Part shown: one piece after another, positions 6,350 to 56,028 of the stretch | Layout of the letters: the number at the start of each line of letters is the position of its first letter | Position numbering within the stretch: the first letter of the stretch is position 1 | Origin: Candidatus Micrarchaeota archaeon | GTDB lineage: Archaea > Micrarchaeota > Micrarchaeia > Anstonellales > Bilamarchaeaceae | Direction of reading: 5' to 3' | Length of the DNA stretch: 64,000 nucleotides | Assembly: GCA_018812715.1 (NCBI GenBank) | Contig: JAHJCT010000017.1 | Coordinates: 204,019-268,018 of the forward strand | The notes under the pieces: generated by a model | What the model saw: the letters and a program-made list of their open reading frames with translations, nothing else | The model's database searches: none | Told to the model about the DNA's origin: nothing | Made by a program: the position numbers and the translations under genes

Positions 6350-6421
6350 TGACTAACTACCTTTGTATTTATTGTGTTAAGAAAGCTTAAAAAGAGGTGT
6401 CACAATAAGGATTTTCAGGGA

Positions 6422-14500: not shown

Positions 14501-17097
14501 GCTTGTTCATATTCTCTTAAATTTCCACTAAAAGCCGCTTCTCTAAGTTCTTCAAGATCACTTCTTAAGCTATGCAATGGATAATCTCTGGCTATTGTTA
14601 AATCGCGCTCCCCATGACTTCTTTCATAACCTCTTATCTGTTCAGCAGTAACATATGCTGGAAATGTTCCATCCTCATTTCTTTCACCGAGTGGAATTTG
14701 TCCGGCTTCTACACCTTCTGCTATCGGCTCTCTTCCCCAGTAAATACCTGTTAATCTGTTATAATCAGCAATAAGCATTTCTGTTTGTACGATTCTTCTT
14801 GTTCCTCTATCAAACTGTTGTGCAGCTGCATAATGCTCTTCATCTGTTCCTGCATGCATTTCCATTTCTATTGCTTCAAGCATTATCCTTCTGCCTCTTC
14901 TGTATCCATATGGCACTTCTTCAGTTCCTTCTCGAATCATGCGTTCATGAGTAAATAGTTCATATCTCCAGCCTTCCTCTCTTCCTCCTTCAGCTGCACC
15001 ATAATAATCTCTTATATATTGCAGCAATAGATTTGCTCCCCGATAATCTCCAGCTTCGACTCTTTCTCTTACAATTCCTAATGCTTCATTTATTGTTGTT
15101 CTCCCAACTCCTCTTCTTTGTGCAAATGTCTCCAATCTGTTTGCTTCTGCTTCTATGTAAACTATCTGCGCTAAGTTGAAGCTTTCCATGAAGGCACCAT
15201 CATCACCTGGTTCGCCTTGTGCCATAGCCTGCAATTGTGTCTCCATTCCACTTAGGTGTATTGCATTTTCATCCGTAATTCTGGTGACTCTTCCATTGCT
15301 TACTACTCCAAGCCTTTGCACAGAATCAACATACATTGCAAGAAGTGTAAGTACTCTTGCTGCTTCTTGTGCATTCCCTTGTCTTGCAAGTTCTTCTGCA
15401 CGTTCAAGTGTTTGATTTACTATCCCTATCTGGAAAGTCATTCTTCTTGAACTCCAGTTTTCAATCAGTTCTCTGAATTGATCTGTTTCTCCTCTAACCT
15501 GGTGGTAAATCATTCCTATATTGAACTGCTCACTGGCATCTTCTCCTGCCATTTCACTTTGAAGTGCTTGTTCTATTGTTTCGCGTCCTTCCCAATCCCC
15601 CCAGCGATGCCCTTCATTTCTGTCATAATAAAATGAAATCATGTAAAGTAATCTTCTTGCTCCTTCGAAATCACCAAGCTTGAATCTTTCATCTGCAATG
15701 GCTGCTGCATTTCTGATAAGTTCTCTTCTCTCTTGCCCTCTTCTTCCTGTAATTGCTTGGAACCCTTCAATATCTACAAGCATGTGTGCCATGTCCATTT
15801 CAGTTGAATACTGTGCAAGCATTGATGAAGTAGGGCTTCTTCCTTCAATTATTATATTATATATTGTCTGATAACTCGGCAGATAATCTACTGCATGCCT
15901 ATCTAATTGTCTTGCAGACCGTTCAAGCAATCCTAAAGAAATGGCAAGTGCTGCAAGATTTCTATCTCCTCTTTGCAGTGCATCAAGTGCCTGTTGACCA
16001 TACCATTCCGGACTTTCTTCTGTTACTCTTCCTGTTCCACGTAAACTAGTAGCAATCATAGTCAGGTTTGCATCTCTTTCTTCTTCGCTTAATGGCATCT
16101 CTCTTCCAATTGTCATGAAATAGCTGGTTGTAATTCTTTCAAATTCCAACTGACCAATTATTTGTCCTTGTTCAAGTCTTCTGATTATTTCATCTAGTTC
16201 ATGCCTGAGATTTTCCATTTGCTGTCTCATCTGTTCATTTGTCTGTTGTTCTATTGCAAGTGCTATCTCATCTCTCCATTGGCTGAAGACTGTTGTGTTT
16301 ATCTCAGTCCATTGGTCCTTTATTGTTCCTATATTAGCTTCAAAAGACCAAAGCGATTGTCTATCTTCATGTTCCTGTTCACTAGTATACCCAATCCTTT
16401 GCCTCCCCTGGTTTCCTCTCTCCACTATAAAACCAAAGAGTGCATTTCTTTCCATTTCTACAGCTGAATTGTCGATATTGTAAATAGGAATATTCTCAAC
16501 GTACAATCTCCCTGCTTTTAGTACTGCCTCTGCTCTGCCGTGATTTGTTGTTGCAATATCTAATACAGAAGCTTCCAGGCTATCAAAAATAGTTTCAAGT
16601 GCATCTTCTGATTCCACGCCAGGAATCTGAATATTTTCAGGCATGCCCCCCGTTAGCATATGTAATTCTATATCAAATACATCTCCGACTGTTCTGAGCA
16701 TTGCCCTTGATCTTGTTATCATGTGGAATGATGCAGCAATGTTTCCTTCTCCACCAGTTGTTCTTGCATCATTTAATATCTGCTGAACTAAATCGAGTTC
16801 ATCCGTATACCTTTCTCCAAGTATTGGCAGTGCAGTTACTCTTAATCTCACTTGTTCCAATGTTTCTTCTGTTCTTTCTACTTCTGAATTAATGTATTCA
16901 ATAGTTGCATCATCAGGCCTGACAGTTAAGGTTCGCGCATGATCCTGGAGTGCACTAATCTCTCCAAGCACTTCATCCAATCCCTGTTCTAATTCTCTTC
17001 TTTGTTCATCCATTGCTTCTATTCTTGTTGGAATGATTGCAATTGGTAATCGTGTAATCTCCTCCTCTTCAGGTCTTTCTATTGTTGTTCCTCCCAT
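8533..17097 (-). CDS. giant protein B (2854 aa), unknown function, with a central multi-pass hydrophobic block and a conserved C-terminal domain
   Basis: Uninterrupted 8.5-kb ORF with ATG at 17097 and a strong SD. Helical TPR-like repeats (GDYRGANLLLQYIRDYY, GDFEGARRLLYMISFYY, GRFQEAEEAYEAAIDH). About 5 hydrophobic helices around aa 1235-1400. Trp-rich segment AIAWYVIGNYAWDNVLLPWY. C-terminal YRLLTS...YGLTVSGEGE domain shared with the 1463-aa protein. Confidence 0.9.
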   Translation of the reverse strand: MGGTTIERPEEEEITRLPIAIIPTRIEAMDEQRRELEQGLDEVLGEISALQDHARTLTVRPDDATIEYINSEVERTEETLEQVRLRVTALPILGERYTDELDLVQQILNDARTTGGEGNIAASFHMITRSRAMLRTVGDVFDIELHMLTGGMPENIQIPGVESEDALETIFDSLEASVLDIATTNHGRAEAVLKAGRLYVENIPIYNIDNSAVEMERNALFGFIVERGNQGRQRIGYTSEQEHEDRQSLWSFEANIGTIKDQWTEINTTVFSQWRDEIALAIEQQTNEQMRQQMENLRHELDEIIRRLEQGQIIGQLEFERITTSYFMTIGREMPLSEEERDANLTMIATSLRGTGRVTEESPEWYGQQALDALQRGDRNLAALAISLGLLERSARQLDRHAVDYLPSYQTIYNIIIEGRSPTSSMLAQYSTEMDMAHMLVDIEGFQAITGRRGQERRELIRNAAAIADERFKLGDFEGARRLLYMISFYYDRNEGHRWGDWEGRETIEQALQSEMAGEDASEQFNIGMIYHQVRGETDQFRELIENWSSRRMTFQIGIVNQTLERAEELARQGNAQEAARVLTLLAMYVDSVQRLGVVSNGRVTRITDENAIHLSGMETQLQAMAQGEPGDDGAFMESFNLAQIVYIEAEANRLETFAQRRGVGRTTINEALGIVRERVEAGDYRGANLLLQYIRDYYGAAEGGREEGWRYELFTHERMIREGTEEVPYGYRRGRRIMLEAIEMEMHAGTDEEHYAAAQQFDRGTRRIVQTEMLIADYNRLTGIYWGREPIAEGVEAGQIPLGERNEDGTFPAYVTAEQIRGYERSHGERDLTIARDYPLHSLRSDLEELREAAFSGNLREYEQASETYWNRLSLIATRVHRRSTVVDAEVILRQGNDALTEAFRAYVINMCGGGTTGERAWQTAWDYGHDVGAFTTTSNGLSLMADYIEQHPETFGAVSDLEMGRLRQVIYLSTEVDALLTQMDGIEYTTDDLPIYGEGLRGGTVMSYLLELVQGESRAAMAYSQIGQQIEVNDEYLRMIRIGGGDRFSLAEDNLRDCNTDLQRAQNLILEGRFQEAEEAYEAAIDHRITAMASYEGRSAMNLTATGIENFLEGAERLGEAIFFPEDFAEFMRSEPDRSYWDAYREMQTDSMHYILFGRGGSGSQERMQLDLNGARIVEASIFAIPADSGSQMFAEYAVDQGNVYALVGMGRFDDANAIIDRMQERVADHQFWTTVGLTAVGVVACLVPGGQLFGGSLFATMAFDQIVTEYRVQGEASWTSWLMFGGIIATMGIGGLAGVLRTEAQFAQGTAYATRMTQVVRALNYTNIGIGVGFSGYMGYHAVDAFSEGNMREGIFLTAMAAFPWAHMAGSRGWQAMRARPVRGTTEARTETELVAEEIRAPEPREVPIEIEPNEIPSVREAQRLRTPEEMFEFMRELRSEDPTVRDGAQARLRTLPEEVQGRIMQFMETGSIGNTSFMHVPEALVTGEMTPLARGNMTSVIDMIFRGPEPPTPGPRGGRPVTEVESTGTLQPGRLDWLLEGLLTPEGTTARENVVHRAAAQQTLENIRAENPEVAEIIDGLIRNPSVRHYFETGEATPFSQRALENARSQIEAMFEPEAVAMAVNDYNYYIEDVVASEMARRPHLVEGEGPMMIRQMPEVRAMAEEGGARPPGVQQGGIGPVDTTVGGGQGGGGGPVRPIPEVRWGRFERMYRFGRERWQNWRSDRVERNARAELPEAEEVLSTTGEGVRNTLDMVLDPELAQLEISRARTRATELEVRVEELREGGARPEEIRVAEQEAQTARTEAVELENLLNSSPQRIADIMKSLYDTAQTARGETSGYWNLLRRIYSRPNVRAQLETLAETDPVLRDILNRTGRTIESGARNAGISPEDYMAVQAREGFSANDVEVMIRAIEAQRGELAPLLRTQELLGIEYTPLERASLLPRLEGSDIIPPQMLVRELAGVQNSVEGRIREIPIADEPVTNVIRRTLLERSSQGGNVNDVLTEILRSPEVERAVRERYGREAAEIYRDAVQNNRTVDEILNVLEQGRAVEGAEPQFVPREMRTPLEGFVRNISQDPAFAQEFSAINALRPRINQVLDQASTAADVFARDTRPLRDDAINIGWRILRFLNNWEPLTNWGARRFVNSIRNAVPGGRIRAGLRNSPYLIPQAIAWYVIGNYAWDNVLLPWYNSLNSAGSVEEGRRLCERDFGNLCAGASDEDLEWLATEEGRRFFFHMPNALPRGRDRRPGNVEDLNQLLQRTDILIEPRRLGEIVADGREMGGRLDDINDLLSDMRRGDAEDRREAELAAILEPWGLTVDDVQGILSQERKEEVDITDLFDLRIPQWRERGLVIDFRDAVADAFCVDTGLISEGEAESGRYTREGGQRVDFLTSNTDVFAYLWEAVQGGHIPSVYLDNIMNDLTSEGRITELRQQVTSERDIYQVLEAHLRSQNLYIEVIEEDGTVTGIRQNSFLGLLDVRASLDPGFRDTYEQLLNQYRENNEALLAFNAFNIEDIRYGEENRVIGGDAIYGNPQELAALILESETPGEAVEAARQRGFVGSAVLGYMEPRLFDPENAHLVTFIAERSDEERLGFVRWLLDHRDNIRGHVLEIIEDASQHSTVPGPGRYTEIYEYLDRRATVYRSNGWWDGATPAEEQAREERERSRGTVTREETVEPVGEEFEAQYVRRPGFEVMTPRREDQIDVEEVHAPPATLSPEAQRFYANEESTLTPLLDGTIDRMIEARNDDGTLTEDAQAMVNAYGPEINSEDAETRERARDVVRADIKAEMYRLLTSTIDRDMQLREGYGLTVSGEGEGLSVEVDRRTARNGLRNHIMQYVSRRGER

Positions 17098-17511: not shown

Positions 17512-20500
17512 TTATTCATTTTCTCTGCCTACAAAGCTCAGAGTGTGTCTCTCTATGCCTCTTCTGGCTCTTCCCATATCTGTTATTTGAACAGCGAACT
17601 CTTCGCCTTCACCACTTACAGTGAGTCCATAGTCAGTACGGTGCTGTACGTCCCTTCGTATATCACTTGTAAGAAGTCTATACCACTCTGCTCTTATTGC
17701 CATTTCAGTTTGTTCTCTGTTCCCTTCAAATGCACTTCTTAGCAATTGACCGTCTTCTCCTTCATCAGTGAAGAGCCTTTCCAGGGTTCCGTCCAACATG
17801 CTGTTAAAGTCATTTTCAATAGTATAGAACTGTTGAGCCTCAGCGTTCAATTCTGTACCACTTCTCTCAGTTCCAGTTCCTCTAAATCTTTCTACTTCAT
17901 TGATGTATCCTGTATCAACAGCCCACTGTACACGAACACCTTGTGGATCTGAGAATGGATTATAGTCAGATACATTTCCACCATCTGCTTTGTGCCTTTG
18001 CAGTTCTTCAACAAATTCTTCAAGACGGTATCTGTTGAGTCTGTATCGTGCACCTCTGGTATCGACAAAGCTTGTCAGGAGCTCTCTTATATCCTGGTTT
18101 GTTGGCGCAAGAAGAGTGTATGCCATGCTATCTGAAATATCAAATTCAGAAAGTTCTCTTCTTAACTCCCTTCTTGCATATTGTTCAGAGGTATCTTCAA
18201 CCCATCCATTTGTTCTTGCAGTTGCCATTGCTTCATTGAATGTTTCTTCTAACATTACATCAGTTACAGGAACACGTCTTGTTTGCAATGTTTGTCCTTC
18301 CCCAGCTCTTGCTTGTGTTTTTTCTTCCCAAAGAGTAACAAATGCTTCTCTATTTTCTGGTTTGAGGTACTCGGTATGCTCTCCCCTTTCAGCCACTAAT
18401 GGAAGCATAAGTCTTCCTACTCTATCTCTTCCTTGTGCAAAGACAAAATCCACTAATCCAAGATCTGCTATATTATAATTATCCATTACTCTTTCTTGTT
18501 GCTCAGATACGAGGAATCCTCTTTCTACCCATTGCCTTGTATGTTCATTCATATAGTCATAGTCAACTGTTGCCCTCGTTCCCTCTTGTGCCATTAAATA
18601 ATCAACAAATTCATTTGTCATATTCCTGTTGAGTTTAAGGCCATCGGTTATCACAGTATATTCTACATCGATTATACAACAGAACTGATTTCCTGATTCC
18701 CATTCATCTTCAATTGCTAGTGGTTCCCAGTTTTCTACATCATCCATACTTTCAATACCAAGTTCTCTGCATGAATTAGGTATTACTAATCCCGGTGTTG
18801 CTGGAGGCCTTTCAACTGCTTCTCCTGTTCCCTCGGCTACTTCATTAGTTCCTTCAGCTACCTCGCCAGTTCCTTCTGCATTTTCTTCTCTAGGCGGAGG
18901 TTGTGCTCTAGAGGTAGAACCTGCACTTGTTTCCTGAGAACAATTAGCTATGTCATCATCATCCAGTTCGTTTACATCTCTAACATGTTTCAATGTTCTT
19001 CTCTCTTGGAAGAATGTAAGAACACCTTCATTATCATGTTCAACTTGATTATCCCTTAGCCAGTCTAATCTTTCCTCACCTGTAACTCCATATGCAGTTG
19101 TGTAATAACTATCCTCTCTTTCTGCAAGTCGTTCTGGAATGTCGTAACTATCATTTATCATTCTCTTATTTGAGAGCTCACCTTGCATCGGAGACCACCA
19201 TTCCCAAGGTGCTCGGTCGAAGTGGTTTCCAAAATGATTAAAGCTCCAACGCCATGGCATCGCATTCCATGAGAATGGATTGTACCAATGACCTGTAGTT
19301 GATGTACCAATGCGATAGGTCCAAGGTTTGTACCATGCTCCGTTTGGTGTTGTTGTCATCCATTCATTTGGTGATGTGAACCATGCAACACCAAAAGATC
19401 CTATCAAGTATGCTTTGAGTGCTCCTTTCCAAAGTCCCCTCAACCATCTCGGGTAATGTTGGTATGTGTGAGCCTTTCCTGTAATTGGATTTCTACCAAC
19501 AACTTGCTTATTCCAATTTCGTTTCTTAAGATCATCAACTGTTTCTCCAAAGCCCCAACTTGAAAGTCTTCTAAGACGCCCACCTCTAAAATTACCTTGT
19601 GACTTTCCTATCCATGCTTCGCTTGTAAATAATCTCCAGAACCATTTATCTTTGAACTTTTGCCATTTTCCTACAGTTACTTTTGGAGACGGATCCCAGC
19701 TTTCTTTTGTAGCTTCCCAGATCGTTCTTGCTATAACAAATTGACCTTGAGGTATTTCACCTAAGTTTTCAGCAGTTCTTTTATGAAGCATTTCAACTGA
19801 TTTTTCAGCTGCTTTTCCTAATGGCTTGGAATACTTATTTTCTATTTTTACCAGCATCTCTTCTAATGAAGCACGAGGATACTTTCTAGTTTCTATTGCC
19901 TTTACAACTGTCAGCATTCTTTTTCTTACTTCATCAGGCAATTCTGCTCCTTCTACTTTTGTTCTTAATGCAGTTGCTTTTGTATCAAATGCTTCAAGCT
20001 TATATCTGAAAAGTTCTTCGCTTTCACCTTTACCTTTTCGTTCTTGTATCACTGCATCATATTCTGCTTTAGTAATACTTCTTGCTCTAAGCAGTTCATC
20101 CAATTGTTCTGCAGTTTTTGTTCTCAATCCTTGTTCTGTTGAAGGAATACCAAACAATTGCTGGCAGTCGTCCATACGATCAAGAACTTTCTTTGTATCT
20201 TTCATCAATTCACTGATAACTGGATTGCCTAGCCACTCTCCTGCTCTATTTGGAAGTTCATGAATTAATTCTGTACTCACTTCTCTGCAGTCAAGCATAT
20301 GCTTTTTGAAGTTTTCAGAGTATGTCCGTACTACATTTTCAAATCTGCCATTTTCAGTTCCTTGTATTCCACCTAATTCTGCTGAAAGTGTATCAAATAT
20401 TTCTTTTGCTTGAGTATACTCGTCCTCTATTCTCGCCCCCCTAGCAGACAAACTCAGTCCACGGGTATTAAATTCACTAATTCGCTGTCTTGCAATTACT

Positions 20501-21903
20501 AATTCTTGTTCTGCAGTATCCTTCTCTTCAGTAGCTTTTCTTTCTGCATCCTCAATCTGTTTTTGTGTTGCTTTTGCCTTTCCTTCTGCAACAAGCTGTT
20601 TTAGTTTTACAACTTTATCATACTGTTCTGTTTTTTCTACAACAGTTGCTTCGGCTCGTTCAACCAGTCTCTCTGCATCTGCCCTTTCGTTTCTAAATTC
20701 TGAAATTTCGTCATCTATTGCATCTACTCTTGCTGCACTTTCTTCCATGACGCTTTCAGCAGCAGCTCTCCGTACCATCATGTCTTCAACAGTTTGTCGT
20801 TGGCTTGGTCTGCATGGTCCAAATCCTTCAACATCAACAAAATGACCTGTTCCTGGAATACCTAGCCCTTCAACTGTCTCATTTGTAGGTGTTAAAAGAA
20901 TTGCACGAACGAATTGCCTGAAATTATCTGCAGCCATATCTATTGCTATAGATGTTCTTGATTCAAGATAAGCATCCACATAACTTCCATCAAGTACACG
21001 ACGATTAGTTTCTTGAGTATTCTCCGAGTCCATGCTTCTGGTCCCAGAAAGTTGCTTTAAAACACTACCTATGAATTCTCCTTCTTTTCCTGGGCTGAGT
21101 CTTTGTGCGACATTTTCAAGAAATCTAAAGAATGCGTCTGGAGGTAACGCTACTCCTTCTGGCCATGTTTCATGAGTCCACAATGATTCATATAATTTAT
21201 CTCCCCTTTCATCTCTTACACAATTTCCTTGTTCATCTTCTTGCTCAATCGGATTCCCCTTATCATCTAATTTAAATCTAGATCCGATCATTTGCGAATA
21301 AATAATATCAATTCTATCAGCATCAAAATCTTCGACTCTTCCTTCACTTAACTCTTGAGCAAGTCTTTGCCTTACGGCATACATTCTTTCTGCATACGCA
21401 GTATCAAGTTCTTCAAGCGGTGTCGGCACCGTCGGTTTCTTCAACCCATCAATAAATTCTTTTCTGCATACAATCTCTCTTATAAGCATATCAAAGCCAG
21501 AACTTGTCCTGCCCTGTCCTCTTCGTATTGCATCTACCAATTCTAATGTAAATTTAGTCAAATACTCTGCATTTGCTGTATCAGCACCGCTTTGCGGGGT
21601 TCCTCCGGCACCATGCCGTGTATCTTTATCTTGCCCTCGTTCTCCTCTCAGTTCTTTTAATCTTTCTTCTTTAGCAAATTCAATTCTTGCGTCTTTATCT
21701 GCTCTTTTTCGAGCTTTATGATCTTTTCTTAATTCAGGACTTAATGCAGCCCCCAGAACGGGCACTCTCTCTGCCATATATTTGTAACTCTTTGCAGAGC
21801 GACTTTCTCCACCTCTTGCCCAATCAAATACTCTTTGCCTTATACCAGCTTTCTCAGCCTGTTTATCTCTTCCCTGAGCCCTATCTATAACACTACCCGT
21901 CAT
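17512..21903 (-). CDS. giant protein C (1463 aa), unknown function, with coiled-coil N-terminal part, extremely Trp-rich segment and conserved C-terminal domain
   Basis: ATG at 21903 with GGAGG 12 nt upstream. About 18 Trp in ~150 aa (KWQKFKDKWFWRLF...PWRWSFNHFGNHFDRAPWEWW). C-terminal AEWYRLLTSDIRRDVQHRTDYGLTVSGEGE matches protein B. Confidence 0.9.
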   Translation of the reverse strand: MTGSVIDRAQGRDKQAEKAGIRQRVFDWARGGESRSAKSYKYMAERVPVLGAALSPELRKDHKARKRADKDARIEFAKEERLKELRGERGQDKDTRHGAGGTPQSGADTANAEYLTKFTLELVDAIRRGQGRTSSGFDMLIREIVCRKEFIDGLKKPTVPTPLEELDTAYAERMYAVRQRLAQELSEGRVEDFDADRIDIIYSQMIGSRFKLDDKGNPIEQEDEQGNCVRDERGDKLYESLWTHETWPEGVALPPDAFFRFLENVAQRLSPGKEGEFIGSVLKQLSGTRSMDSENTQETNRRVLDGSYVDAYLESRTSIAIDMAADNFRQFVRAILLTPTNETVEGLGIPGTGHFVDVEGFGPCRPSQRQTVEDMMVRRAAAESVMEESAARVDAIDDEISEFRNERADAERLVERAEATVVEKTEQYDKVVKLKQLVAEGKAKATQKQIEDAERKATEEKDTAEQELVIARQRISEFNTRGLSLSARGARIEDEYTQAKEIFDTLSAELGGIQGTENGRFENVVRTYSENFKKHMLDCREVSTELIHELPNRAGEWLGNPVISELMKDTKKVLDRMDDCQQLFGIPSTEQGLRTKTAEQLDELLRARSITKAEYDAVIQERKGKGESEELFRYKLEAFDTKATALRTKVEGAELPDEVRKRMLTVVKAIETRKYPRASLEEMLVKIENKYSKPLGKAAEKSVEMLHKRTAENLGEIPQGQFVIARTIWEATKESWDPSPKVTVGKWQKFKDKWFWRLFTSEAWIGKSQGNFRGGRLRRLSSWGFGETVDDLKKRNWNKQVVGRNPITGKAHTYQHYPRWLRGLWKGALKAYLIGSFGVAWFTSPNEWMTTTPNGAWYKPWTYRIGTSTTGHWYNPFSWNAMPWRWSFNHFGNHFDRAPWEWWSPMQGELSNKRMINDSYDIPERLAEREDSYYTTAYGVTGEERLDWLRDNQVEHDNEGVLTFFQERRTLKHVRDVNELDDDDIANCSQETSAGSTSRAQPPPREENAEGTGEVAEGTNEVAEGTGEAVERPPATPGLVIPNSCRELGIESMDDVENWEPLAIEDEWESGNQFCCIIDVEYTVITDGLKLNRNMTNEFVDYLMAQEGTRATVDYDYMNEHTRQWVERGFLVSEQQERVMDNYNIADLGLVDFVFAQGRDRVGRLMLPLVAERGEHTEYLKPENREAFVTLWEEKTQARAGEGQTLQTRRVPVTDVMLEETFNEAMATARTNGWVEDTSEQYARRELRRELSEFDISDSMAYTLLAPTNQDIRELLTSFVDTRGARYRLNRYRLEEFVEELQRHKADGGNVSDYNPFSDPQGVRVQWAVDTGYINEVERFRGTGTERSGTELNAEAQQFYTIENDFNSMLDGTLERLFTDEGEDGQLLRSAFEGNREQTEMAIRAEWYRLLTSDIRRDVQHRTDYGLTVSGEGEEFAVQITDMGRARRGIERHTLSFVGRENE
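18820..18882 (-). repeat. three tandem 21-bp units encoding (V)AEGTxE heptads inside giant protein C
   Basis: Plus-strand units ttctcctgttccctcggctac / ttcattagttccttcagctac / ctcgccagttccttctgcatt. Protein reads AEGTGEVAEGTNEVAEGTGEA. Confidence 0.7.
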
Positions 21904-33862: not shown

Positions 33863-34425
33863 AGCTTGTAGTTATTGAGGGTATAGACGGCTGCGGGAAG
33901 GAGACTCAGATAAAACTCCTAAAAGAAAAGTTCCCTAACGCAGTTGTATTCAAATACCCAACGAAACGCTATTCTTTACTCAATGACTATCTTGAAAAAA
34001 AAGCTGAATTAAACCCAAAAGCCCTTTTCCTTTTATTTCTCTCAGATATAGCCAATGAGCAGAAAAAAGTAAAAAAAACCCTTGAAGATGACAAACTTGT
34101 AATTCTGGATCGCTATGTTTTCTCAACTATTGCCTATGAAATTAATGGCATCTCTTACAAACAAGGAAAAAAAATTGTCGAAGATTGTGATTTTCTAAAA
34201 CCCGACATGGTTCTTCTCCTTGATATAACCTCAGAAACTTCACAAAGTCGTAAGAAAAAGCAAAAACAGCTCGATCGTTATGAAGAAAATGCAGAATACC
34301 TCGAACAAGTAAGATCAAATTTTTTGAAACTCTCTGAAGAAAGGTTTTTAACACCTAATTGGCACAGAATTGACGCTAGCAAGGATATAAATTCAATCCA
34401 TGCAGAAATAATGAAACTTCTTTAG
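33859..34425 (+). CDS. tmk: thymidylate kinase
   Basis: MKLVVIEGIDGCGKETQ P-loop and DRY motif (LDRYVFS). ATGA overlap with the upstream surface-protein gene. Confidence 0.85.
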   Translation: MKLVVIEGIDGCGKETQIKLLKEKFPNAVVFKYPTKRYSLLNDYLEKKAELNPKALFLLFLSDIANEQKKVKKTLEDDKLVILDRYVFSTIAYEINGISYKQGKKIVEDCDFLKPDMVLLLDITSETSQSRKKKQKQLDRYEENAEYLEQVRSNFLKLSEERFLTPNWHRIDASKDINSIHAEIMKLL

Positions 34426-34609
34426 CTGCGTTCGTCTAGTCCGGCCAAGGATAGTGGACTTTCACAAACTTTTTGAAAAACAGCAAAGAACTTTGTTCTT
34501 TGTGCCCCATGAAAACCATTCGGTTTTCATTCGGGAAGTTTGATCAAAAACCAAATCTCGAAAAGTTTGAAGAACTCCATTGACCTGGGTTCGAATCCCA
34601 GACGCAGCA
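34425..34609 (+). tRNA. tRNA-Glu(UUC) interrupted by a 110-nt intron at the canonical 37/38 position
   Basis: Acceptor GCUGCGU/ACGCAGC+A. D-loop AGUCCGGCCAA typical of tRNA-Glu. Anticodon arm GUGGA-CUUUCAC-UCCAU after splicing. T-arm CUGGG-UUCGAAU-CCCAG. Exons 34425-34464 and 34575-34609. A T-run follows. Confidence 0.85.
34465..34574 (+). other. tRNA intron with canonical helix-bulge-helix-bulge-helix splice motif
   Basis: 3-nt bulges CAC and AAC are separated by 4 bp (CUUU/GAAG). These are flanked by the anticodon stem and an 8-bp intron helix AAACUUUU/AAAAGUUU. Internal hairpins are CAAAGAAC-UUU-GUUCUUUG and AUGAAAACC-AUU-CGGUUUUCAU. Confidence 0.75.
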
Positions 34610-34707
34610 TTTTTTCTTGAATAGCAGATGCCATTCACCAATATGTAATTTGCTCAAAAAATAACCGTACCAAACTATTTATAGCGTAAGGGCATATCTT
34701 TGAAACA

Positions 34708-35181
34708 ATGAAGGCCATACTTTTCGAGCCGAAATACCAGAAAGCAGTGCTTGAACTGAACGAACTTGCATTGAAACGATCGAAATACATAGGAAAAACA
34801 GTGGACTCTAACTGGCACGATGATCTCGTAAAAATAAAGGAATTATATTTGGATAATAATGGTGCTTTTTTGCTATGGCTTGTTGGTGACAAGCTAATAG
34901 GAATGGGTGGTCTTCTCAAAGTTGATACAAATACCGCCAATATCAAGAGAATAAGGGTACATCCAGATTACCAGCATAAAGGATTATCTAGCGAAATTTT
35001 AGCAGAACTGGAAAAGAGAGCGAGGGTGCTTGGTTATAATCGACTAATCACAAACGTTGCTAAAGGCAACATCCCTGCAGAAAAAATGTTTCTTAAAGCT
35101 AATTTCAAACCAGTTGAAGAAAAACATTTCTTTTCTGTACTCTGCACTGTTTTTGAAAAAAAGTGCGAAGTACTTTATTAA
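34708..35181 (+). CDS. GNAT family N-acetyltransferase
   Basis: IRVHPDYQHKGLSSEILAELEKRA (R/QxxGxG/A-type acetyl-CoA motif). TTTATA box about 27 nt upstream of the ATG. Confidence 0.75.
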   Translation: MKAILFEPKYQKAVLELNELALKRSKYIGKTVDSNWHDDLVKIKELYLDNNGAFLLWLVGDKLIGMGGLLKVDTNTANIKRIRVHPDYQHKGLSSEILAELEKRARVLGYNRLITNVAKGNIPAEKMFLKANFKPVEEKHFFSVLCTVFEKKCEVLY

Positions 35182-35207
35182 CCTGGCGTTGAATCCCAGA
35201 ACTGCAA
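35181..35207 (+). repeat. degenerate copy of the tRNA-Glu 3' end (T-arm/acceptor)
   Basis: acctggcgttgaatcccagaactgcaa compared with the tRNA acctgggttcgaatcccagacgcagca. The blocks acctgg and gaatcccaga are identical at the same spacing (17 of the first 20 nt match). Confidence 0.45.
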
Positions 35208-35269
35208 TCCGTTTAGGATTTGCTGAATACAAACACAGTATTATATTAAACAAACCCATATTTTTGATT

Positions 35270-36175
35270 ATGCGAATTTTTCTTTTCCTTTTCTTAATTT
35301 CTCTTACATTTGCAGCAAATGTAACTCCATTTCTTAATTTAGAATTAGAAACTAGTTGTCCAGGCAATTTCCTCAACATAACAACCATCTTATCTAATGG
35401 TACAGCGGCAGCAGATGTAGAACTTCGACTTGTACGTCATATTCCCTATCAAGGCCTTCGTGCTATTCAACATACTAATGAAAATGGGACAGCATCTGTA
35501 GAATTAACAAACACAGGTGAATATCGTATCTACATTGAAAACAGCGATTACTACAATAGTGATACATTTGTAGAGTTCAATTACTCTGAGATGTGTCCTC
35601 TTCCTCCTCCAGAAGAGTTTAATCTCTCTATTGAAGTAAATTGCAATGCCAGCATCCTCAAAATAACTGCAAGTAAAGATGGAATCCCATTGGAAAATGT
35701 TTTCATAAACACACAGAATTGGTCTTCTCTCACCGGAACTACTGGAACTGTTTTCTTTCTGCTTGAAGAAGGTTGGACTTTGATACGTGCAAATAAATCT
35801 GGATATGTTTACAAAGAATCAATTATAAACATAGTTTGCACACCGCCAGAATGCATTACAGATGAGAATTGCACCTATAATCAATATTGCTTCAATGAGA
35901 GTTGCATCAATCTCACTGGTGTATGTGGCTATCCAGAAAATCATTCATGGATTGGATATGAGTGCTGTGAAGATGGGGGTTGTGAAATGAATTTTGTATG
36001 TCTGAATAACAGCTGCATTTCATTGCCTCCACAGCCTGAAAATATAAACAATGTTTCCCTAAACCAAACTGTCTCTCAAGAAGAACCTGCAGAACCCCCC
36101 TGTATTGCGGCATTATTGCTACTATTTATTTTGCTATTGACCACTTTATTGAACTACGTTCAATATGCGCCTTGA
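35270..36175 (+). CDS. secreted/anchored glycoprotein-like protein: signal peptide, beta-sandwich domains, Cys-rich module, C-terminal hydrophobic anchor
   Basis: MRIFLFLFLISLTFAANV signal peptide (the track N-terminal extension from 35057 overlaps the GNAT gene). About 16 NxS/T sequons. CGYPENHSWIGYECC module. C-terminal PCIAALLLLFILLLTTLL. Confidence 0.7.
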   Translation: MRIFLFLFLISLTFAANVTPFLNLELETSCPGNFLNITTILSNGTAAADVELRLVRHIPYQGLRAIQHTNENGTASVELTNTGEYRIYIENSDYYNSDTFVEFNYSEMCPLPPPEEFNLSIEVNCNASILKITASKDGIPLENVFINTQNWSSLTGTTGTVFFLLEEGWTLIRANKSGYVYKESIINIVCTPPECITDENCTYNQYCFNESCINLTGVCGYPENHSWIGYECCEDGGCEMNFVCLNNSCISLPPQPENINNVSLNQTVSQEEPAEPPCIAALLLLFILLLTTLLNYVQYAP

Positions 36176-36251: not shown

Positions 36252-36296
36252 CTTGAAAATAAATTTTCAAGATCAGCCAACTTTGCATAAGCAAAG
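36252..36296. terminator. two AT-rich perfect hairpins between convergent transcription units
   Basis: cttgaaaat-aa-attttcaag (36252-36271) and ctttgc-ataa-gcaaag (36281-36296), bracketed by the direct repeat agtgggctttc (36239-36249 and 36295-36305). Confidence 0.35.
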
Positions 36297-36548
36297 TGGG
36301 CTTTCCAGTTAGCCTTGACATGAATATAAGGAGCCAATATCCGCTACTCAATCCTGGATCTTATAAGCACGGAACGATACATTTAGGGCTGCTTCTTCCG
36401 ATCTGACCCGGTTCATATATAATCCCGCCACATAAGGCAGGACGTCAACGCTTAAGATACTGGGCATACATCCACGGCAAAACGCCCCAGACCTTCGAGT
36501 CGCCTAAGGGGATTTGCGATGCCGGGACCCCTAGCCCCGCTCTAGCCC
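36290..36548 (-). ncRNA. signal recognition particle RNA (7S/SRP RNA); 3' end uncertain (36235-36330)
   Basis: ORF-free GC-rich island. The minus strand starts GGGCUAGAGCGGGGCUAGGGGUCCC with two 5' hairpins. It has a helix-6-like UCCUGCC-UUAUGU-GGCGGGA. It has the helix-8 signature CCGGGUCAGAUCGGAAGAAGCAGCCC (compare the universal GGUCAGGUCCGGAAGGAAGCAGCC). Confidence 0.7.
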
Positions 36549-36569
36549 ATTATTATAACGAAATTCTCC

Positions 36570-49596: not shown

Positions 49597-50739
49597 TTAC
49601 TTCTTCAAAACCACAATACTCTCTCTTGTTTTTATTTTCTGTGGTTTTACATCTGCTATTCTTTCTGCACCAATGATTATTTCTGCTTCAAAGCCAATCC
49701 TCTCCCCTATCTCAGCAAGAATCTCATCAACAAGCACATGTGTCTGATGTATTACTGAATTGGAAACAATTATGTGTGTGCTTCCCCCATCCTGCAAAAC
49801 TCGGTACATTTCAGCTATTGACTGTTCCATATCTTTGAAATACGTGCCTATTATTGGAATCCTATATCCTATTTCTCCAACTTCTGGGGGCATTTCTTGG
49901 ACATCCATTTTCTTTCCAATAAATGATCTCACTGCGCGCATTCTCGTTTCTTCAGCCTCTGCTTTGCTCATATGCAATAAGCTCAATTCAAGTCCATAAA
50001 TTTTGGAATAATCTATGTTGTTTAAATATGGTGGGGAAGTTACAACCAAATCAACGCTTTCTTCAGGTAAATCCAGCCCTCTTGCATCACCTAAGAAAAC
50101 TTGCGGAACTGGTTCAAGTGCTTCGTTTTGTTCCAAATCCTCCAGTATTTTTTTCACTTTTCTTTTGAATATTTCTTTTGCAGGAAGCGCTCTCTTTCTT
50201 CGTGTTATTTTCAAAACTCCGCCATCCTTTACAATGATACTTGCCTGAGGAAGAATAGATAATAATGCTAAGAGCAAAAGATCACGTCCTTTCCCTTCCT
50301 CCTGCTCTATTGCATTCCGCAATGCCAGAATTTGATTGTAATTCCTTTTTGGGAATGCAGCACGGGCATCAAACAACTCAAACTCCCAACGTAGGGGACG
50401 CACGCCCTCTTCTGGTTTTATCTTTGTTGCTAAAAATGATTTAACGGATTCAATATCTTCTTTACTATAATTCTCGGTTTTTGTTTTTGAAATAAAAACT
50501 GCAAGAGAAGAAGCATCAACACCAACGGATTCAATTCCCCCCTGTTTTGCAGTTAATAACGTTGTCCCAACTCCACAAAAGGGATCTAGGATTATTTTTG
50601 GTTTTGAATTTCCAATTGCATATTCGACTATCTCCGGAGCAAATCCTTCTTTATACCAAAACCAGTTATGTGTTGGTTTACTCTTGGAATATTCAAAGGT
50701 CATATACTTTCCAAGATCATAATTTTGTTTGATTTTCAT
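49597..50739 (-). CDS. N6-adenine/N4-cytosine-type methyltransferase (SPPY motif), orphan; start uncertain (50739 or 50703)
   Basis: LDPFCGVGTT (motif I) and VVTSPPYLNNIDYSK (motif IV) are about 180 aa apart. No restriction endonuclease is recognisable nearby. Confidence 0.6.
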   Translation of the reverse strand: MKIKQNYDLGKYMTFEYSKSKPTHNWFWYKEGFAPEIVEYAIGNSKPKIILDPFCGVGTTLLTAKQGGIESVGVDASSLAVFISKTKTENYSKEDIESVKSFLATKIKPEEGVRPLRWEFELFDARAAFPKRNYNQILALRNAIEQEEGKGRDLLLLALLSILPQASIIVKDGGVLKITRRKRALPAKEIFKRKVKKILEDLEQNEALEPVPQVFLGDARGLDLPEESVDLVVTSPPYLNNIDYSKIYGLELSLLHMSKAEAEETRMRAVRSFIGKKMDVQEMPPEVGEIGYRIPIIGTYFKDMEQSIAEMYRVLQDGGSTHIIVSNSVIHQTHVLVDEILAEIGERIGFEAEIIIGAERIADVKPQKIKTRESIVVLKK

Positions 50740-51133
50740 TTCTTTTTCCTCGTTTTGCACCTTCTTTTGATAATTCATCTGCTTCGTTGTTTTTCTCACG
50801 TGGTATATGTTCAAAATGTACCTTAAGACCTTTACAAAGTTCATCTATTCTTTTTTTGAGTGGTTTCAATTTCAGATCTTTTACTTTATACTCATTATTT
50901 AATTGTCTAATCACAAGTTGACTATCACTTTTGATGTGTACCTCGCGTTCTCCCATCTGGTGAGCAGTTTCAAGTGCTTTAATCACTGCAGTATACTCAG
51001 CTATATTATTTGTCCCATTCCCTAAATACTCACTCAATTCTTCTACACATATCCCTTCACGATAAATTACAATGCCAATTCCCATAGGGCCGGGGTTTCC
51101 TAGCGAGGCTCCATCAGTATAAATTATCAGCAT
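50717..51133 (-). CDS. rnhA: ribonuclease HI
   Basis: IIYTDGASLGNPG, NNIAEYTAVIKALE, SDSQLVI and NNEADELS motifs (DEDD). Confidence 0.8.
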   Translation of the reverse strand: MLIIYTDGASLGNPGPMGIGIVIYREGICVEELSEYLGNGTNNIAEYTAVIKALETAHQMGEREVHIKSDSQLVIRQLNNEYKVKDLKLKPLKKRIDELCKGLKVHFEHIPREKNNEADELSKEGAKRGKRNENQTKL

Positions 51134-51183: not shown

Positions 51184-51633
51184 ATGTCATATTCCTTCAA
51201 TCCTTACCCCGTGGTTGGAGCAGTTCGAGCCGCTGTTATAGCAGCACTTTTCTCAATTTTCTTGTTATTTGTAACATTCTTTCTTGGCCCATGGACATTC
51301 ATTATTATCATTCTCGTTTGGGCATTGACCCTACTAAGAATAGTATCTGTATTCTTAATGGCCAAATATCAAGTTTTAACCTTAGAGAAAAATAGCATAA
51401 CTTATAGGGTTGGCGTTTTTTCTCATAGCAGCGTTGTTCTTCCTTATCAAAAAATCACAGAAGCAAGTTACAGTCAGGGCTTTATTCAACGTATTTTTGG
51501 GGTTGGAACGTTAAGATTAGATAGTGCGGGGGGCTCTCAAGTTGCTATTTATGTACAGGATGTTCGTCATGTCGATGTCCAAAAGACACTTCGTGAAATA
51601 GATGAGAAAGGTGGCAAGGTAGATACTAAATGA
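51184..51633 (+). CDS. membrane protein with bacterial PH (bPH_2/DUF304) domain
   Basis: Two TM helices followed by ...LPYQKITEASYSQGFIQRIFGVGTLRLDSAGG. ATG at 51184 is preceded by AGGTG. Confidence 0.55.
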   Translation: MSYSFNPYPVVGAVRAAVIAALFSIFLLFVTFFLGPWTFIIIILVWALTLLRIVSVFLMAKYQVLTLEKNSITYRVGVFSHSSVVLPYQKITEASYSQGFIQRIFGVGTLRLDSAGGSQVAIYVQDVRHVDVQKTLREIDEKGGKVDTK

Positions 51634-52112
51634 AATTCGATACGGATTATCTTGTAATTAATGATCGATCTCTTATACTTAAACTCCGTAGCCTTGGGGC
51701 AGGCGTAGAAGAAGGAGATGAAACAAAAATAACCTATCTTGAAGCTGCCTATTTTGCAGATCGTGGAGTACTTCCAGCAGATAAAGAAAAACTCCTGAAA
51801 CACGTTAAGGAAGACTTTGCAAAAGAAAAATATATTGTTATAAAGTACCTCAGAGACCAAGGCTATATCATTCGGCCAAGCCTTGATGGAAGTGGTTATC
51901 TTCGCCTCCATAGAAAAGGATATCGCCCTGGTGAAGATAAAACTTATTATCTGATTAAAGTAGTTCCAAAAGACTGGAAATGCAGCTCAGAATCCCTTTT
52001 GCCTTCTTTGGAAACCGCAGGAAAATTACGTAAGGAACTCGCTATCGCGATTGTTGATCCAGAATATGACAAACCTTTGTTTATAAAATTCGGAAGAATG
52101 AATTTTGATTGA
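51630..52112 (+). CDS. endA: tRNA-splicing endonuclease family protein, probably a non-catalytic (structural) subunit
   Basis: LEAAYFADRGVL, KYLRDQGYIIRPS, GYLRLHRKG, YYLIKVV and AGKLRKELAIAIVD align with the EndA C-terminal domain. The catalytic Tyr and His positions appear to be His and Thr. Confidence 0.6.
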   Translation: MKFDTDYLVINDRSLILKLRSLGAGVEEGDETKITYLEAAYFADRGVLPADKEKLLKHVKEDFAKEKYIVIKYLRDQGYIIRPSLDGSGYLRLHRKGYRPGEDKTYYLIKVVPKDWKCSSESLLPSLETAGKLRKELAIAIVDPEYDKPLFIKFGRMNFD

Positions 52113-52147: not shown

Positions 52148-53647
52148 ATGGAACTTGGAACTATCATAGTTACAGATGGGACTCCTTCTACTACTGATTT
52201 TTCATTTGTCCTTAAAAATCCTGTAAAAAAAGGCCAGTATGTTCAAGTAAAAAACAATGATGATATTCTTTTTGGTTATATTTCTGAAATAACAAAAGCA
52301 AATAGATATTTTGAACGTGCTGAAAGCGTAGCAGAATTTGAAAAATATTCTGGCATGGAATCATTTCCTTCAAGTTCATGGGAATATGTGCTTGCAACTG
52401 TGAAAGTTCTTGGAGTTTTTAAGGATAACCAATTTCAAAGGGCATTCGTTCCACCATCTCCAGGGATCCAAGTATTCAATGCAGATAACAATGTTCTTCA
52501 CACTTTCTTAGGATTTGATAAAAACGGCCTTCATCTTGGCTCTATTGAACATCATGATGTTCCTGCAAAATTATCCATGACCAGGTTATTCCAGAAGCAC
52601 ATGGCCATTCTTGCAATGAGTGGTGCAGGAAAATCACATTTAGCAAGTGTGCTTCTCGAAGAAATACTTGAACGTAAAAAAGAGGATGGTCGTATTGCAG
52701 TTATCTTAATCGATATCCACGGAGAATATATAGGTTTTGCCCACGATCCAGTGTTTGGATCAAAAACTGAAGTAATTGATGGCAAAGATATCGCAATTCC
52801 ACTCAAGAAAATAAGTCCGGAACTTATCATGGGGTGGTTACCTAATCTTTCCTCACCCCAAAAGGATGTACTACGTCATGCACTTTTAACTCTGAAAAAA
52901 GAGAAAAAAGATGCTACAGGTTATAATTTCAAAGAACTTATAGAAAAAATCGATGCTTCTGATATTTCCAGAGATGAAGTAAAACGTGCACTTAAACGCA
53001 GCCTAAGCGAACTTAGAAGATACCGATTCGTCTCCAAAAAAACAGAAAAACCTCATCTACTATCAGATATTAAACCAGGAAAACTCATGATTCTTGATTT
53101 CAGCACAATAGATTCTCTTAGAAAAAAACAAATCTTAGTATCTCTAATAGCACGAAGACTTTTCAATCTCAGAAAGAAAAATAAAATTCCTCCATTTTTG
53201 CTTCTTATTGAAGAGGCCCATAATTTTGCAAGAGAAAAAGCCGAAGCCAGTGAGGCAGTCTCAAGAAGCATAATTGAAACAATTGCGCGTGAAGGGAGGA
53301 AATTTGGGGCATCACTATGCCTGATAAGCCAGAGACCAGTAAATCTTAGTACTACTGCCTTAAGTCAATGCAATACTCACATAATTCTCAGGGTTACAAA
53401 TCCAAATGATCTTGATCACATTCAAATGAGTTCGGAGGGGATAGATTCAAGAGTAGCAAGAAGTATAACTGGTCTTAAAGTAGGAGAAGCAATAGTAGTT
53501 GGGTCAGCTGTCAATTACCCTGTTTTTATCAGCGTAAGAGATAGAAAATCAGAAAAAAGAGAAAAAGGTGCACCTCTCCATACCCAAGCTATTGACTTCG
53601 AAGAAAAACAAGAAAAAAAGGAAAAGGCGGTTGAAGCCTTCATCTAA
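52148..53647 (+). CDS. HerA-like (DUF87) P-loop ATPase
   Basis: N-terminal barrel-like region, Walker A AMSGAGKSHL, Walker B LLLIEEAH, and RKFGASLCLISQRP. Confidence 0.7.
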   Translation: MELGTIIVTDGTPSTTDFSFVLKNPVKKGQYVQVKNNDDILFGYISEITKANRYFERAESVAEFEKYSGMESFPSSSWEYVLATVKVLGVFKDNQFQRAFVPPSPGIQVFNADNNVLHTFLGFDKNGLHLGSIEHHDVPAKLSMTRLFQKHMAILAMSGAGKSHLASVLLEEILERKKEDGRIAVILIDIHGEYIGFAHDPVFGSKTEVIDGKDIAIPLKKISPELIMGWLPNLSSPQKDVLRHALLTLKKEKKDATGYNFKELIEKIDASDISRDEVKRALKRSLSELRRYRFVSKKTEKPHLLSDIKPGKLMILDFSTIDSLRKKQILVSLIARRLFNLRKKNKIPPFLLLIEEAHNFAREKAEASEAVSRSIIETIAREGRKFGASLCLISQRPVNLSTTALSQCNTHIILRVTNPNDLDHIQMSSEGIDSRVARSITGLKVGEAIVVGSAVNYPVFISVRDRKSEKREKGAPLHTQAIDFEEKQEKKEKAVEAFI

Positions 53648-54519: not shown

Positions 54520-56028
54520 ATGACGAGAAGAGAGGCTATAGATTATATCATAGACAGACTCATTGCTGGAGAGGAGGATCTAGGGCAAATAAAACGCGAA
54601 GCAGGAAACAAATTCAAGATCTCATCAATGATAACAAATCCAGAGATTCTTGCACAGTTTCCAGCTTCAAAACTCACTTCAAAAATAAAAGATATGCTGA
54701 TAAAAAAACCAACAAAAACCATCTCAGGAGTCACACCTGTTGCTGTAATGATAAAGCCTCAAGATTCTTGCAAATATGCCTGCATTTACTGCCCATTTAC
54801 AGGGCTTGCTGCAAAAAGTTATCTAGGTTATGAGCCTGCTGCTTTACGGGGAAGAAATTTCTCTTTTGATCCTTACATGCAAGTTTCAAGCAGAGCAGAG
54901 CAATTTGAAACGGGTGGCCATGCAACTGATAAATGCGAAGTCATAATCATGGGTGGCACATTCCTAGGTATGGACAAAAACTACAAAGAATATTTCATAA
55001 AAGGCGTTTATGAGGGCCTTAATGGAAAGAGATCTCATACGCTTCAGCATGCAATCAAAACAAATGAAACAGCAAAACACCGGGTAATTGGCCTTACAAT
55101 TGAAACCAGACCAGATATGTGCTCTCAATACATAGATGAAATGCTTTCTTATGGCGCTACGCGTGTAGAATTAGGAGTACAGCATGCTGATGATGAAATC
55201 TATAAAATCATAAATCGTGGGCATACAACTGCTGATGTCATAAGTGCAACAAGAGATCTGAAAGATGCAGCATTCAAGGTTCTTTATCACATCATGCCTG
55301 GCCTTCCTGGTTCTAATATGAAAAAAGATATTGCTTTTGTAAAAAAACTCTTTAATGATAAGAATTTCAGGCCAGACATGCTCAAGATATACCCTACTCT
55401 TGTTGTGGGTGGCACTGTCTTACAAAAATGGGCTGAAGAAGGTAAATACAATCCATACACTACAGAAGAGGCGGCAGAAGTAATCTCTGAATTCTACCGT
55501 TATATCCCCAAATATGTTAGGGTAATGCGCATCCAAAGAGACATTCCTGCTGGCAGAATAAATTCAGGTGTAAGAAAAAGTAATCTAAGAGAGCTTGTAG
55601 AAGCAAAACTTAGAGAAAAAGGCATCATTCCGCAGGAAATACGTTATAGGGAAGTAAAAAGAAAACACATCAAACTTGCTGATTTTGAACTAAAAAGATT
55701 AGATTACGAAGCAAGTCAAGGTAAGGAAATTTTCTTATCATATGAAAATGAAAATCTTATTGCAGGGTTTCTAAGATTAAGGTTTCCTCAAGAAACTTCA
55801 GTTGCATTTGTAAGAGAATTGCATGTTTACGGTTCTGAAGTTCCAATAAGTGGAAATGGGAAAGTCCAGCACAAAGGTTTTGGCTCAAAATTATTACAAG
55901 AAGCTGAAGAAATAGCAAAAGAAAATGGAAAAGAAAAAATGCTAATTATTAGCGGCGTGGGTGTAAGGCCATATTACTCAAAATACGGCTATTCATTTTC
56001 AGGATCTTACATGTGTAGGAACCTATGA
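54520..56028 (+). CDS. elp3: Elp3-like radical SAM/GNAT tRNA uridine(34) modification enzyme
   Basis: CKYACIYCP radical-SAM cluster motif and a C-terminal GNAT domain (HKGFGSKLLQEAE). Confidence 0.85.
   Translation: MTRREAIDYIIDRLIAGEEDLGQIKREAGNKFKISSMITNPEILAQFPASKLTSKIKDMLIKKPTKTISGVTPVAVMIKPQDSCKYACIYCPFTGLAAKSYLGYEPAALRGRNFSFDPYMQVSSRAEQFETGGHATDKCEVIIMGGTFLGMDKNYKEYFIKGVYEGLNGKRSHTLQHAIKTNETAKHRVIGLTIETRPDMCSQYIDEMLSYGATRVELGVQHADDEIYKIINRGHTTADVISATRDLKDAAFKVLYHIMPGLPGSNMKKDIAFVKKLFNDKNFRPDMLKIYPTLVVGGTVLQKWAEEGKYNPYTTEEAAEVISEFYRYIPKYVRVMRIQRDIPAGRINSGVRKSNLRELVEAKLREKGIIPQEIRYREVKRKHIKLADFELKRLDYEASQGKEIFLSYENENLIAGFLRLRFPQETSVAFVRELHVYGSEVPISGNGKVQHKGFGSKLLQEAEEIAKENGKEKMLIISGVGVRPYYSKYGYSFSGSYMCRNL

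Follow-up and report, generated by a model that had tools for sequence, protein, structure and literature searches.

The window, by which we mean the whole 64-kb stretch of DNA analyzed here (AT-rich, with a G+C content of 38.2%, and part of the genome of a Micrarchaeota archaeon of the DPANN group), harbors a tRNA-Glu(UUC) gene at positions 34425-34609 of the + strand, the only tRNA called by ARAGORN when introns were allowed. This intact gene consists of a 5' exon (34425-34465), an intron of 110 nt (34466-34575), and a 3' exon (34576-34609), and because of the intron it was detected neither by ARAGORN with default settings nor by Rfam. CCA is not encoded at the 3' end, which is directly followed by a run of T. 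The pre-tRNA was predicted to fold far better than shuffled sequence (z = -6.7), its anticodon helix being extended. Removal of such an intron requires a tRNA-splicing endonuclease, and a gene for one is present in the same window; the open reading frames (ORFs) at 51630-52112, 52148-53647, and 54520-56028 (all + strand) encode this endonuclease and its neighbors, a HerA-like helicase and an ELP3-type radical-SAM/GNAT protein.

An intact ORF of 157 aa (34708-35181, + strand) that encodes a GNAT N-acetyltransferase (Pfam PF00583, E = 3.7e-16) begins 98 nt 3' of tRNA-Glu. Comparison with NCBIfam gave RimI-like matches only, all of them sub-threshold. In an alignment of 12 sequences, all conserved columns were present and the C-terminal tail was 2 aa longer than that of the closest orthologues. 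The composition of the gene is host-like (36.7% GC and GC3 of 0.34, versus 34-38% and 0.24-0.32 for its neighbors). DNA homology to the chromosomal GNAT loci of L002 and L024 covers 34658-35172 (+ strand), hereafter the GNAT cassette, which comprises a promoter region of ~50 nt and the coding part without its own stop codon. The promoter region contains CTATTTATA at 34675-34683, followed by TTTGAAACAATG, and is conserved in the DNA alignment. The gene does carry its own TATA-type promoter, predicted to be leaderless, in line with the TATA box that the original prediction had read from this sequence. We considered a toxin-antitoxin module of the TacT/AtaT type and rejected it, because the 98 nt upstream contain only the promoter and no RHH/DUF1778 antitoxin gene neighbors the GNAT gene here or at the orthologous loci.

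The cassette is separated from the end of the tRNA by 48 nt (34610-34657, + strand) starting with the T-run of the tRNA. This stretch showed no significant similarity to the tRNA flanks of relatives or to the other sequences compared, and it may come from the host flank or from incoming DNA. On the other side, 69 nt (35201-35269, + strand) precede a gene for a secreted protein of 301 aa (35270-36175, + strand). Beyond it, an SRP RNA gene (36296-36550, - strand) lies between the secreted-protein gene and that of a Bud32-like kinase; it scored 65 bits with the Rfam model Bacteria_large_SRP, barely exceeding the gathering score, even though the genome is that of an archaeon. Other features of the window are giant ORFs on the - strand, namely one of more than 2117 aa that runs off the window start (2-6352) and others of 2854 aa (8533-17097), 1463 aa (17512-21903), and 1189 aa (56459-60028), and a 415-aa protein (49597-50844, - strand) with a DNA methylase match (N6_N4_Mtase) and further methyltransferase domain matches.

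A degenerate copy of the tRNA-Glu 3' part at the end of the GNAT gene

A repeat search and local alignments delimited a direct repeat of the 3' part of tRNA-Glu. The left copy (34561-34602, + strand) begins within the intron, of which it takes in the last 15 nt, and continues through the 3' strand of the anticodon stem and the variable loop into the T-arm; the right, orphan copy lies at 35159-35200 (+ strand). Without gaps, the two copies are identical at 33 of 42 positions on the same strand, with a start-to-start distance of 598; alignment of 34569-34602 with 35167-35200 gave 29 identical columns out of 35, with two 1-nt indels. The 6-mer ACCTGG and the 10-mer GAATCCCAGA are identical in tRNA-Glu and in the downstream copy, with the same spacing of 4 nt, just as the original prediction had described them. 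The prediction had built on a 27-mer said to start right behind the GNAT stop codon. Its position (35181-35207) was correct, but its first base is the last base of that stop codon and the similarity extends further to the left. Thus the repeat spans parts that are specific to tRNA-Glu (the anticodon stem 3' strand and the variable loop) as well as the T-arm, beyond the generic T-loop. The match in the acceptor 3' strand is unconvincing (CGCAGCA in the tRNA versus ACTGCAA in the copy), and this mismatch could be due to decay or to a small deletion.

To assess significance, the 3' exon of tRNA-Glu was aligned with both strands of the 64 kb. The orphan copy was the top non-self match (score 17; runner-up, 13), and this score was reached in 4 of 300 whole 64-kb windows simulated with a first-order Markov model and in none of 3000 simulations of the 2 kb downstream on the same strand. 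The observation of a degenerate duplicate of the tRNA 3' end behind the GNAT gene was confirmed, and the case for it turned out to be stronger than had been claimed. A separately assembled 1.5-kb contig of the same sample (L001) spans both junctions with an identical sequence.

The segment 35173-35200 corresponds to a degenerate tRNA 3' exon with a broken T-stem and T-loop; the stem contains a C-C mismatch, and the loop reads GTTGAAT, lacking the conserved TTC. No tRNA family of Rfam matched the orphan copy at E <= 10, RNA structure prediction for the scar region was not significant (z = -1.3), and the copy is too decayed to be called as a tRNA by any of the tools used (ARAGORN by default or with introns, and Rfam). 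It is non-functional as a tRNA.

At its 3' end, the GNAT gene runs into the tRNA-derived copy, which holds its two final codons and its stop codon (CTT TAT TAA, 35173-35181). In the same register, tRNA-Glu reads CTC CAT TGA, and all three substitutions between them are transitions towards A/T; in the orthologous genes, the homologous stretch leads straight into the stop (GAA CTA TAG). Because the GNAT frame continues into the copy, these three codons are contributed by the tRNA fragment. Immediately before them, 35159-35172 resembles both the native 3' end of the GNAT gene (18 of 22 alignment columns versus L024) and the 3' end of the tRNA intron (11 of 14), and is therefore the likely crossover zone. 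The right junction lies in the last codons of the GNAT gene, in a zone of microhomology that probably contained the crossover. The cassette fills the insert up to the right repeat, which leaves no space for the debris of a larger element.

The tRNA-Glu locus in other Micrarchaeota

Scanning of species-representative genomes with the protein of the neighboring thymidylate kinase gene (Tmk) yielded 17 Micrarchaeota loci with 59-75% identity, and a scan of metagenomes with the exact tRNA 3' exon added two more, L028 and L029; the relatives compared are related at the genus level or more distantly. In exact-protein look-ups for strain variants, the GNAT protein and p130 were found only in the same sample (SRR2540949), and Tmk and the secreted protein, with the start codons as chosen here, gave no record. 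The conserved order of the neighborhood is aspartate carbamoyltransferase (-), Tmk (+), tRNA-Glu (+), a variable gap, the secreted protein (+), the Bud32-like kinase (-), an M50 protease (-), a 130-aa protein (-), and Cdc48 (-). The tRNA-Glu gene adjoining Tmk is kept in ~15 relatives. Its intron content (L006-L023, L028, L029) varies strongly across Micrarchaeota: no intron is present in L018 and L029, the other loci have an anticodon-loop intron of 48-187 nt, and the 5' part is also interrupted in L007, L009, L011, L015, L017, and L023. This variation suggests rapid intron turnover.

No relative of the GNAT gene was found by tblastn in the 17 syntenic tRNA-Glu loci. The orthologue of the secreted protein is located 3' of tRNA-Glu in relatives (tblastn synteny) and follows it directly in L016, where the tRNA ends at ~8791 and the orthologue starts at 8877. 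This gap of ~85 nt resembles an empty site, the arrangement anticipated by the original prediction for related genomes. Orthologues of the GNAT protein, on the other hand, were found elsewhere: 11 of them, with 64-78% identity, occupy five unrelated chromosomal contexts. In the two closest relatives (L002 and L024), the gene is located after 2-hydroxyacid dehydrogenase and before dCTP deaminase; other contexts include positions after a T2SF-like gene, between an HTH regulator and a CDP-alcohol phosphatidyltransferase, and beside ATP synthase subunit D. The GNAT loci of five other genomes are without tRNA-like sequence or flanking repeats. Neither the 2-hydroxyacid dehydrogenase nor the dCTP deaminase gene of the ancestral neighborhood is present in the window. 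We also inspected L031, which carries the next-best dehydrogenase homologue, as an ancestral GNAT site and discarded it, because no GNAT gene adjoins the dehydrogenase and the GNAT protein encoded nearby belongs to a different family.

Since the GNAT gene is absent from this site in the relatives and its orthologues reside elsewhere, we conclude that it is a lineage-specific insertion and that the tRNA fragment is its junction scar. The gene's own promoter adds to this argument for a scar of insertion at the 3' half of the tRNA. Taken together, 35159-35200 is very probably a real insertion scar of the GNAT gene beside tRNA-Glu.

The 69 nt that follow the scar (35201-35269) are probably the original downstream flank of the tRNA together with the promoter of the secreted-protein gene. 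Alignment of this flank with the tRNA-Glu-proximal flank of L018 gave a weak match (score 16; p ~0.002, without correction for the 12 tests made), and the 9-mer ACTGCAATC within it is common to the tRNA flank of L029 (p ~0.04). When the two flanks were compared with each other outside the tRNA part, two weak and mutually inconsistent matches were obtained, in which TTTCTTGAATA and ATTTGCTCAA both pair with 35217-35229. A blastn-short search with both insert flanks against the comparison sequences gave no match.

The interval after tRNA-Glu differs in nearly every relative. In detail, it contains a conserved gene of ~200 aa in three high-GC genomes, TnpB/OrfB of the IS605 family directly downstream of tRNA-Glu in L006 (1620-2864, - strand), an FkbM methyltransferase in L010, a DEAD helicase in L017, and ferredoxin-thioredoxin reductase, cytochrome b5, and C39 peptidase in L028. 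In L011, it holds a small defense/toxin-antitoxin islet (9283-13788) with an AbiEii/AbiEi toxin-antitoxin pair, an HTH_10 regulator, and a MazF-like toxin. Other genes are found on the opposite side of the tRNA, between Tmk and tRNA-Glu: TnpB/OrfB of the IS605 family in L012 (8705-9901, + strand), a free-standing LAGLIDADG-type endonuclease ORF in L023 (8651-9286, + strand; PF14528), and an ORF for a similar 211-aa LAGLIDADG-type protein in L017 (8640-9275, + strand), PF14528 having been tested on the L023 copy. Across Micrarchaeota, the tRNA-Glu/Tmk locus is a hot spot at which gene content changes.

We searched 15 other tRNA-Glu loci for partial tRNA copies and obtained a significant result only in L018 and a marginal one in L029. 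In L018, the last 14 nt of tRNA-Glu and its flank are copied 772 nt downstream on the same strand (29 of 34 positions without gaps, extendable to ~60 nt), and the score of this repeat was reached in 0 of 3000 simulations. The direct repeat (8646-8705 and 9431-9488) brackets a PsbP-like lipoprotein gene (8778-9347) that is present in no other locus compared; L018 is a parallel, independent single-gene insertion at tRNA-Glu. Motifs rich in GTTTC/GAAAC occur in inverted orientation near both ends of this insert. In L029, the closest relative, ATCaCAGACGCAGCA at 626-640, 391 nt after the tRNA, matches the 3' end of tRNA-Glu at 14 of 15 positions. This match, which lies behind an ORF for a 96-aa membrane protein, is marginal (51 of 3000 simulations) and is also part of a 7-bp hairpin. 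Partial tRNA matches in L012 and L014 were dismissed as chance, because they are inside the Tmk coding sequence.

Origin of the insertion

We searched for an integrative element that might account for the scar. No integrase or recombinase domain was found by Pfam in the ~40 ORFs of the window, and none in the variable gaps after tRNA-Glu of the relatives. The insert of ~0.6 kb contains the GNAT gene alone. Viral contigs scanned for GNAT and for two patterns of the tRNA-Glu 3' end gave no match. In the literature, no provirus was detected in a survey of 1356 Micrarchaeota genomes (PMC13573593), and DPANN viruses are reported to be largely lytic (PMC12647753). An insertion sequence, transposon, or MITE was excluded, since the insert ends carry no terminal inverted repeats, no transposase is present, and the duplication of 35-42 nt or more is at odds with a short target-site duplication.

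Our main reading, to which we assign a probability of roughly 0.5, is that 35159-35200 represents the orphaned right-hand (attR-like) junction of a lineage-specific insertion of ~0.6 kb that arose by an att-type single crossover and put one gene, GNAT under its own promoter, in between tRNA-Glu and its original downstream neighbor. One reciprocal (Campbell-type) crossover would have taken place in the 3' half of tRNA-Glu, between the chromosome and incoming DNA carrying the GNAT gene and its own copy of the tRNA-Glu segment. Integrative elements that target tRNA genes insert in this manner, and the resulting geometry (an intact tRNA, the insert, and a displaced partial 3' copy in direct orientation) is their hallmark. 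The recombinase would have been provided by an element lost later or would have acted in trans. The right copy, not being under selection, would then have degenerated through substitutions biased towards AT and two 1-nt indels, and its acceptor part would have been lost. Several observations are consistent with this att-type route: the repeat starts at the boundary of anticodon loop and intron and runs 3'-ward for 35-42 nt, the two flanks differ and the right one weakly resembles the tRNA flanks of relatives, the spot after tRNA-Glu is variable in relatives, and L018 offers a parallel case. The repeat length falls within the 29-69 bp reported for crenarchaeal att sites, and 3'-distal targeting, including that of intron-containing archaeal tRNA genes, is documented (PMC6563490); tRNA fragments left by such insertions are common in archaeal genomes (PMC9897764). 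Against an att-type route, there is no integrase or element gene and no viral match, the host-like GNAT protein has ordinary chromosomal orthologues, the insert is free of debris, the right junction falls within a coding sequence in the microhomology zone, and the acceptor part expected in an att duplicate is unrecognizable in the orphan copy.

The position of the right junction in the microhomology zone would fit recombination independent of an integrase equally well. According to this explanation, which we regard as possible though rather doubtful, the GNAT cassette was copied or joined by microhomology-mediated recombination and the tRNA 3' exon was duplicated as a by-product; candidate events are a template switch during replication, homology-facilitated illegitimate recombination involving DNA of a relative, or break repair at the tRNA intron-exon junction. 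In the process known as homology-facilitated illegitimate recombination or template switching, a foreign or ectopic segment is joined at a microhomology of a few bases with no dedicated recombinase, and duplication in the recipient can occur. The double resemblance of 35159-35172 to the GNAT 3' end and the intron 3' end is as expected of a microhomology crossover; moreover, the GNAT gene lost its own stop codon at the junction, the insert is a chromosomal unit of promoter and coding sequence with no other DNA, and no integrase was found in the window or in the gaps of relatives, Micrarchaeota being without detected proviruses. LAGLIDADG endonuclease genes adjoin tRNA-Glu in L017 and L023, and ATTTGCTCAA, which ends at the left boundary of the cassette, recurs as ATTTGCTGAA after the scar (p ~0.05, an estimate). 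The lineage-specific acceptor pair G4:C69 is common to both tRNA halves, as would follow automatically if both copies derive from the same gene. However, the 3' half of the tRNA was hit independently in the window and in L018, which is the pattern of a site-specific integrase and would be a coincidence for random breaks; illegitimate recombination or template switching does not predict such recurrence at tRNA-Glu, and we know of no preference of these processes for tRNA genes. Flanking duplications of 35-90 nt are also uncommon for end-joining, the flanks beyond the tRNA part are not clearly alike, and no donor copy of the GNAT gene is at hand to show copying.

Other explanations were considered as well. 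The 27-42-mer behind the GNAT gene could resemble the tRNA by chance, the gene having come by ordinary rearrangement: the copy is short and degenerate, its acceptor part is unmatched, its left end is partly explained by native GNAT sequence, and the window had been screened for many kinds of features. We consider this very unlikely, given that the copy is the top match in the 128 kb searched and its score was so rarely reached in simulation (4 of 300 windows; 0 of 3000 downstream), that it sits exactly at the boundary of a segment missing in all relatives examined, that it matches parts specific to tRNA-Glu rather than the generic T-loop alone, and that L018 provides a parallel case. A relic of a second, complete tRNA-Glu gene from an old tandem duplication, its 5' half overwritten later, would agree with the direct orientation and the proximity of the copies. 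Yet no relative has two tRNA-Glu genes at the locus, and since GNAT coding sequence conserved among the orthologues reaches the copy, there is neither trace of nor room for the 5' exon or intron of a second tRNA; the probability of this origin is accordingly minute. Split and otherwise unusual tRNA genes are a known trait of DPANN archaea, and the copy lies directly at the end of the ORF, so it might be a functional tRNA-like element that serves as the 3' half of a split tRNA, as a signal for processing, or to terminate the GNAT mRNA. The broken T-stem and T-loop and the failure to match Rfam speak against any such role, as do a fold no better than that of shuffled sequence, the absence of a T-run after the copy, the absence of a partner 5' half with a D-arm from the window, and the absence of anything comparable after the GNAT gene in five other genomes. 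We give function hardly any credence, and for the split or permuted tRNA half gene in particular the damaged T-arm, the Rfam result, and the failure to find a partner half in the window argue against it.

The att-type reading places the scar among known systems, of which we compared the SSV-type elements, the pNOB8-type "gene capture", the PYG1 island of Pyrococcus yayanosii, and the integrated mobile elements of thaumarchaea (PMC6563490, PMC9897764). As in the attL/attR scars of these archaeal elements, an intact tRNA is accompanied by a displaced partial 3' copy in direct orientation that brackets the insert, the repeat is a few tens of nucleotides long, the target is 3'-distal (intron-containing tRNA genes included), and the insert is missing from relatives that keep the flanks. 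Unlike in those scars, the two copies of the repeat have diverged (29 of 35 columns identical), no acceptor part is recognizable in the orphan copy, and the junction is inside the coding sequence of the cargo. The archaeal elements measure 5-25 kb and carry an intact or split integrase and element genes, whereas we found ~0.6 kb with one host-like gene, no integrase gene or fragment in or near it, and neither element-type cargo, foreign composition, nor a free element with a matching attP. We know of no related element with an integrase, either at this site or in the phylum Micrarchaeota. Cis-mobilizable elements (CIMEs), the integrase-less remnants of bacterial ICEs in Streptococcus, have att-type repeats at the 3' end of a tRNA or other gene and no recombination module of their own. 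The repeat-flanked DNA at the tRNA 3' end described here is similar in lacking such a module, but CIMEs are several kb long and recognizably derived from ICEs. As for a CIME-like or trans-mobilized cassette, att-type repeats without a recombinase are present, but recurrence with att sites elsewhere is not seen for the GNAT gene in five other genomes. Some sequences annotated as tRNA genes are known to be fragments that arose by partial duplication at insertions of foreign DNA (van der Gulik et al., 2023; PMC9897764); ours is likewise a partial, non-canonical tRNA sequence, and unlike them it is too decayed to be called as a tRNA by any tool. Since the structure is attL/attR-like and comes without integrase, element cargo, or free element, we file it as a tRNA-fragment insertion scar of uncertain catalysis. 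The original prediction of a decayed tRNA-targeted element thus holds as far as an insertion scar at the 3' half of the tRNA is concerned; a decayed element is a possible origin, but no integrase or debris was found in the window and the GNAT gene is host-like.

Insertion scars of this kind are familiar; the present one stands out only by its one-gene length and in that no integrase was seen. Its main use is in annotation, as default tools overlook an intron-containing tRNA gene and the GNAT gene owes its stop codon to a tRNA. For the biology of the organism, the scar dates and delimits the relocation of a single gene in a reduced DPANN genome, and it records tRNA-directed recombination in a phylum that has yielded no integrated elements so far. 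A bolder idea, which we think unlikely at present, is that the 3' end of tRNA-Glu serves Micrarchaeota as a place where single genes are captured, recurrently and in the manner of cassettes; the gene would travel with a tRNA-half recombination site and be mobilized in trans or inserted without a dedicated integrase. The GNAT gene of the window and the PsbP-like gene of L018 would be two independent examples, and recurrent capture of one gene at tRNA-Glu without a resident integrase is drawn from these two cases only. If more one-gene insertions without an integrase are found to adjoin tRNA genes, they would point to an unrecognized route of gene capture in small archaeal genomes.
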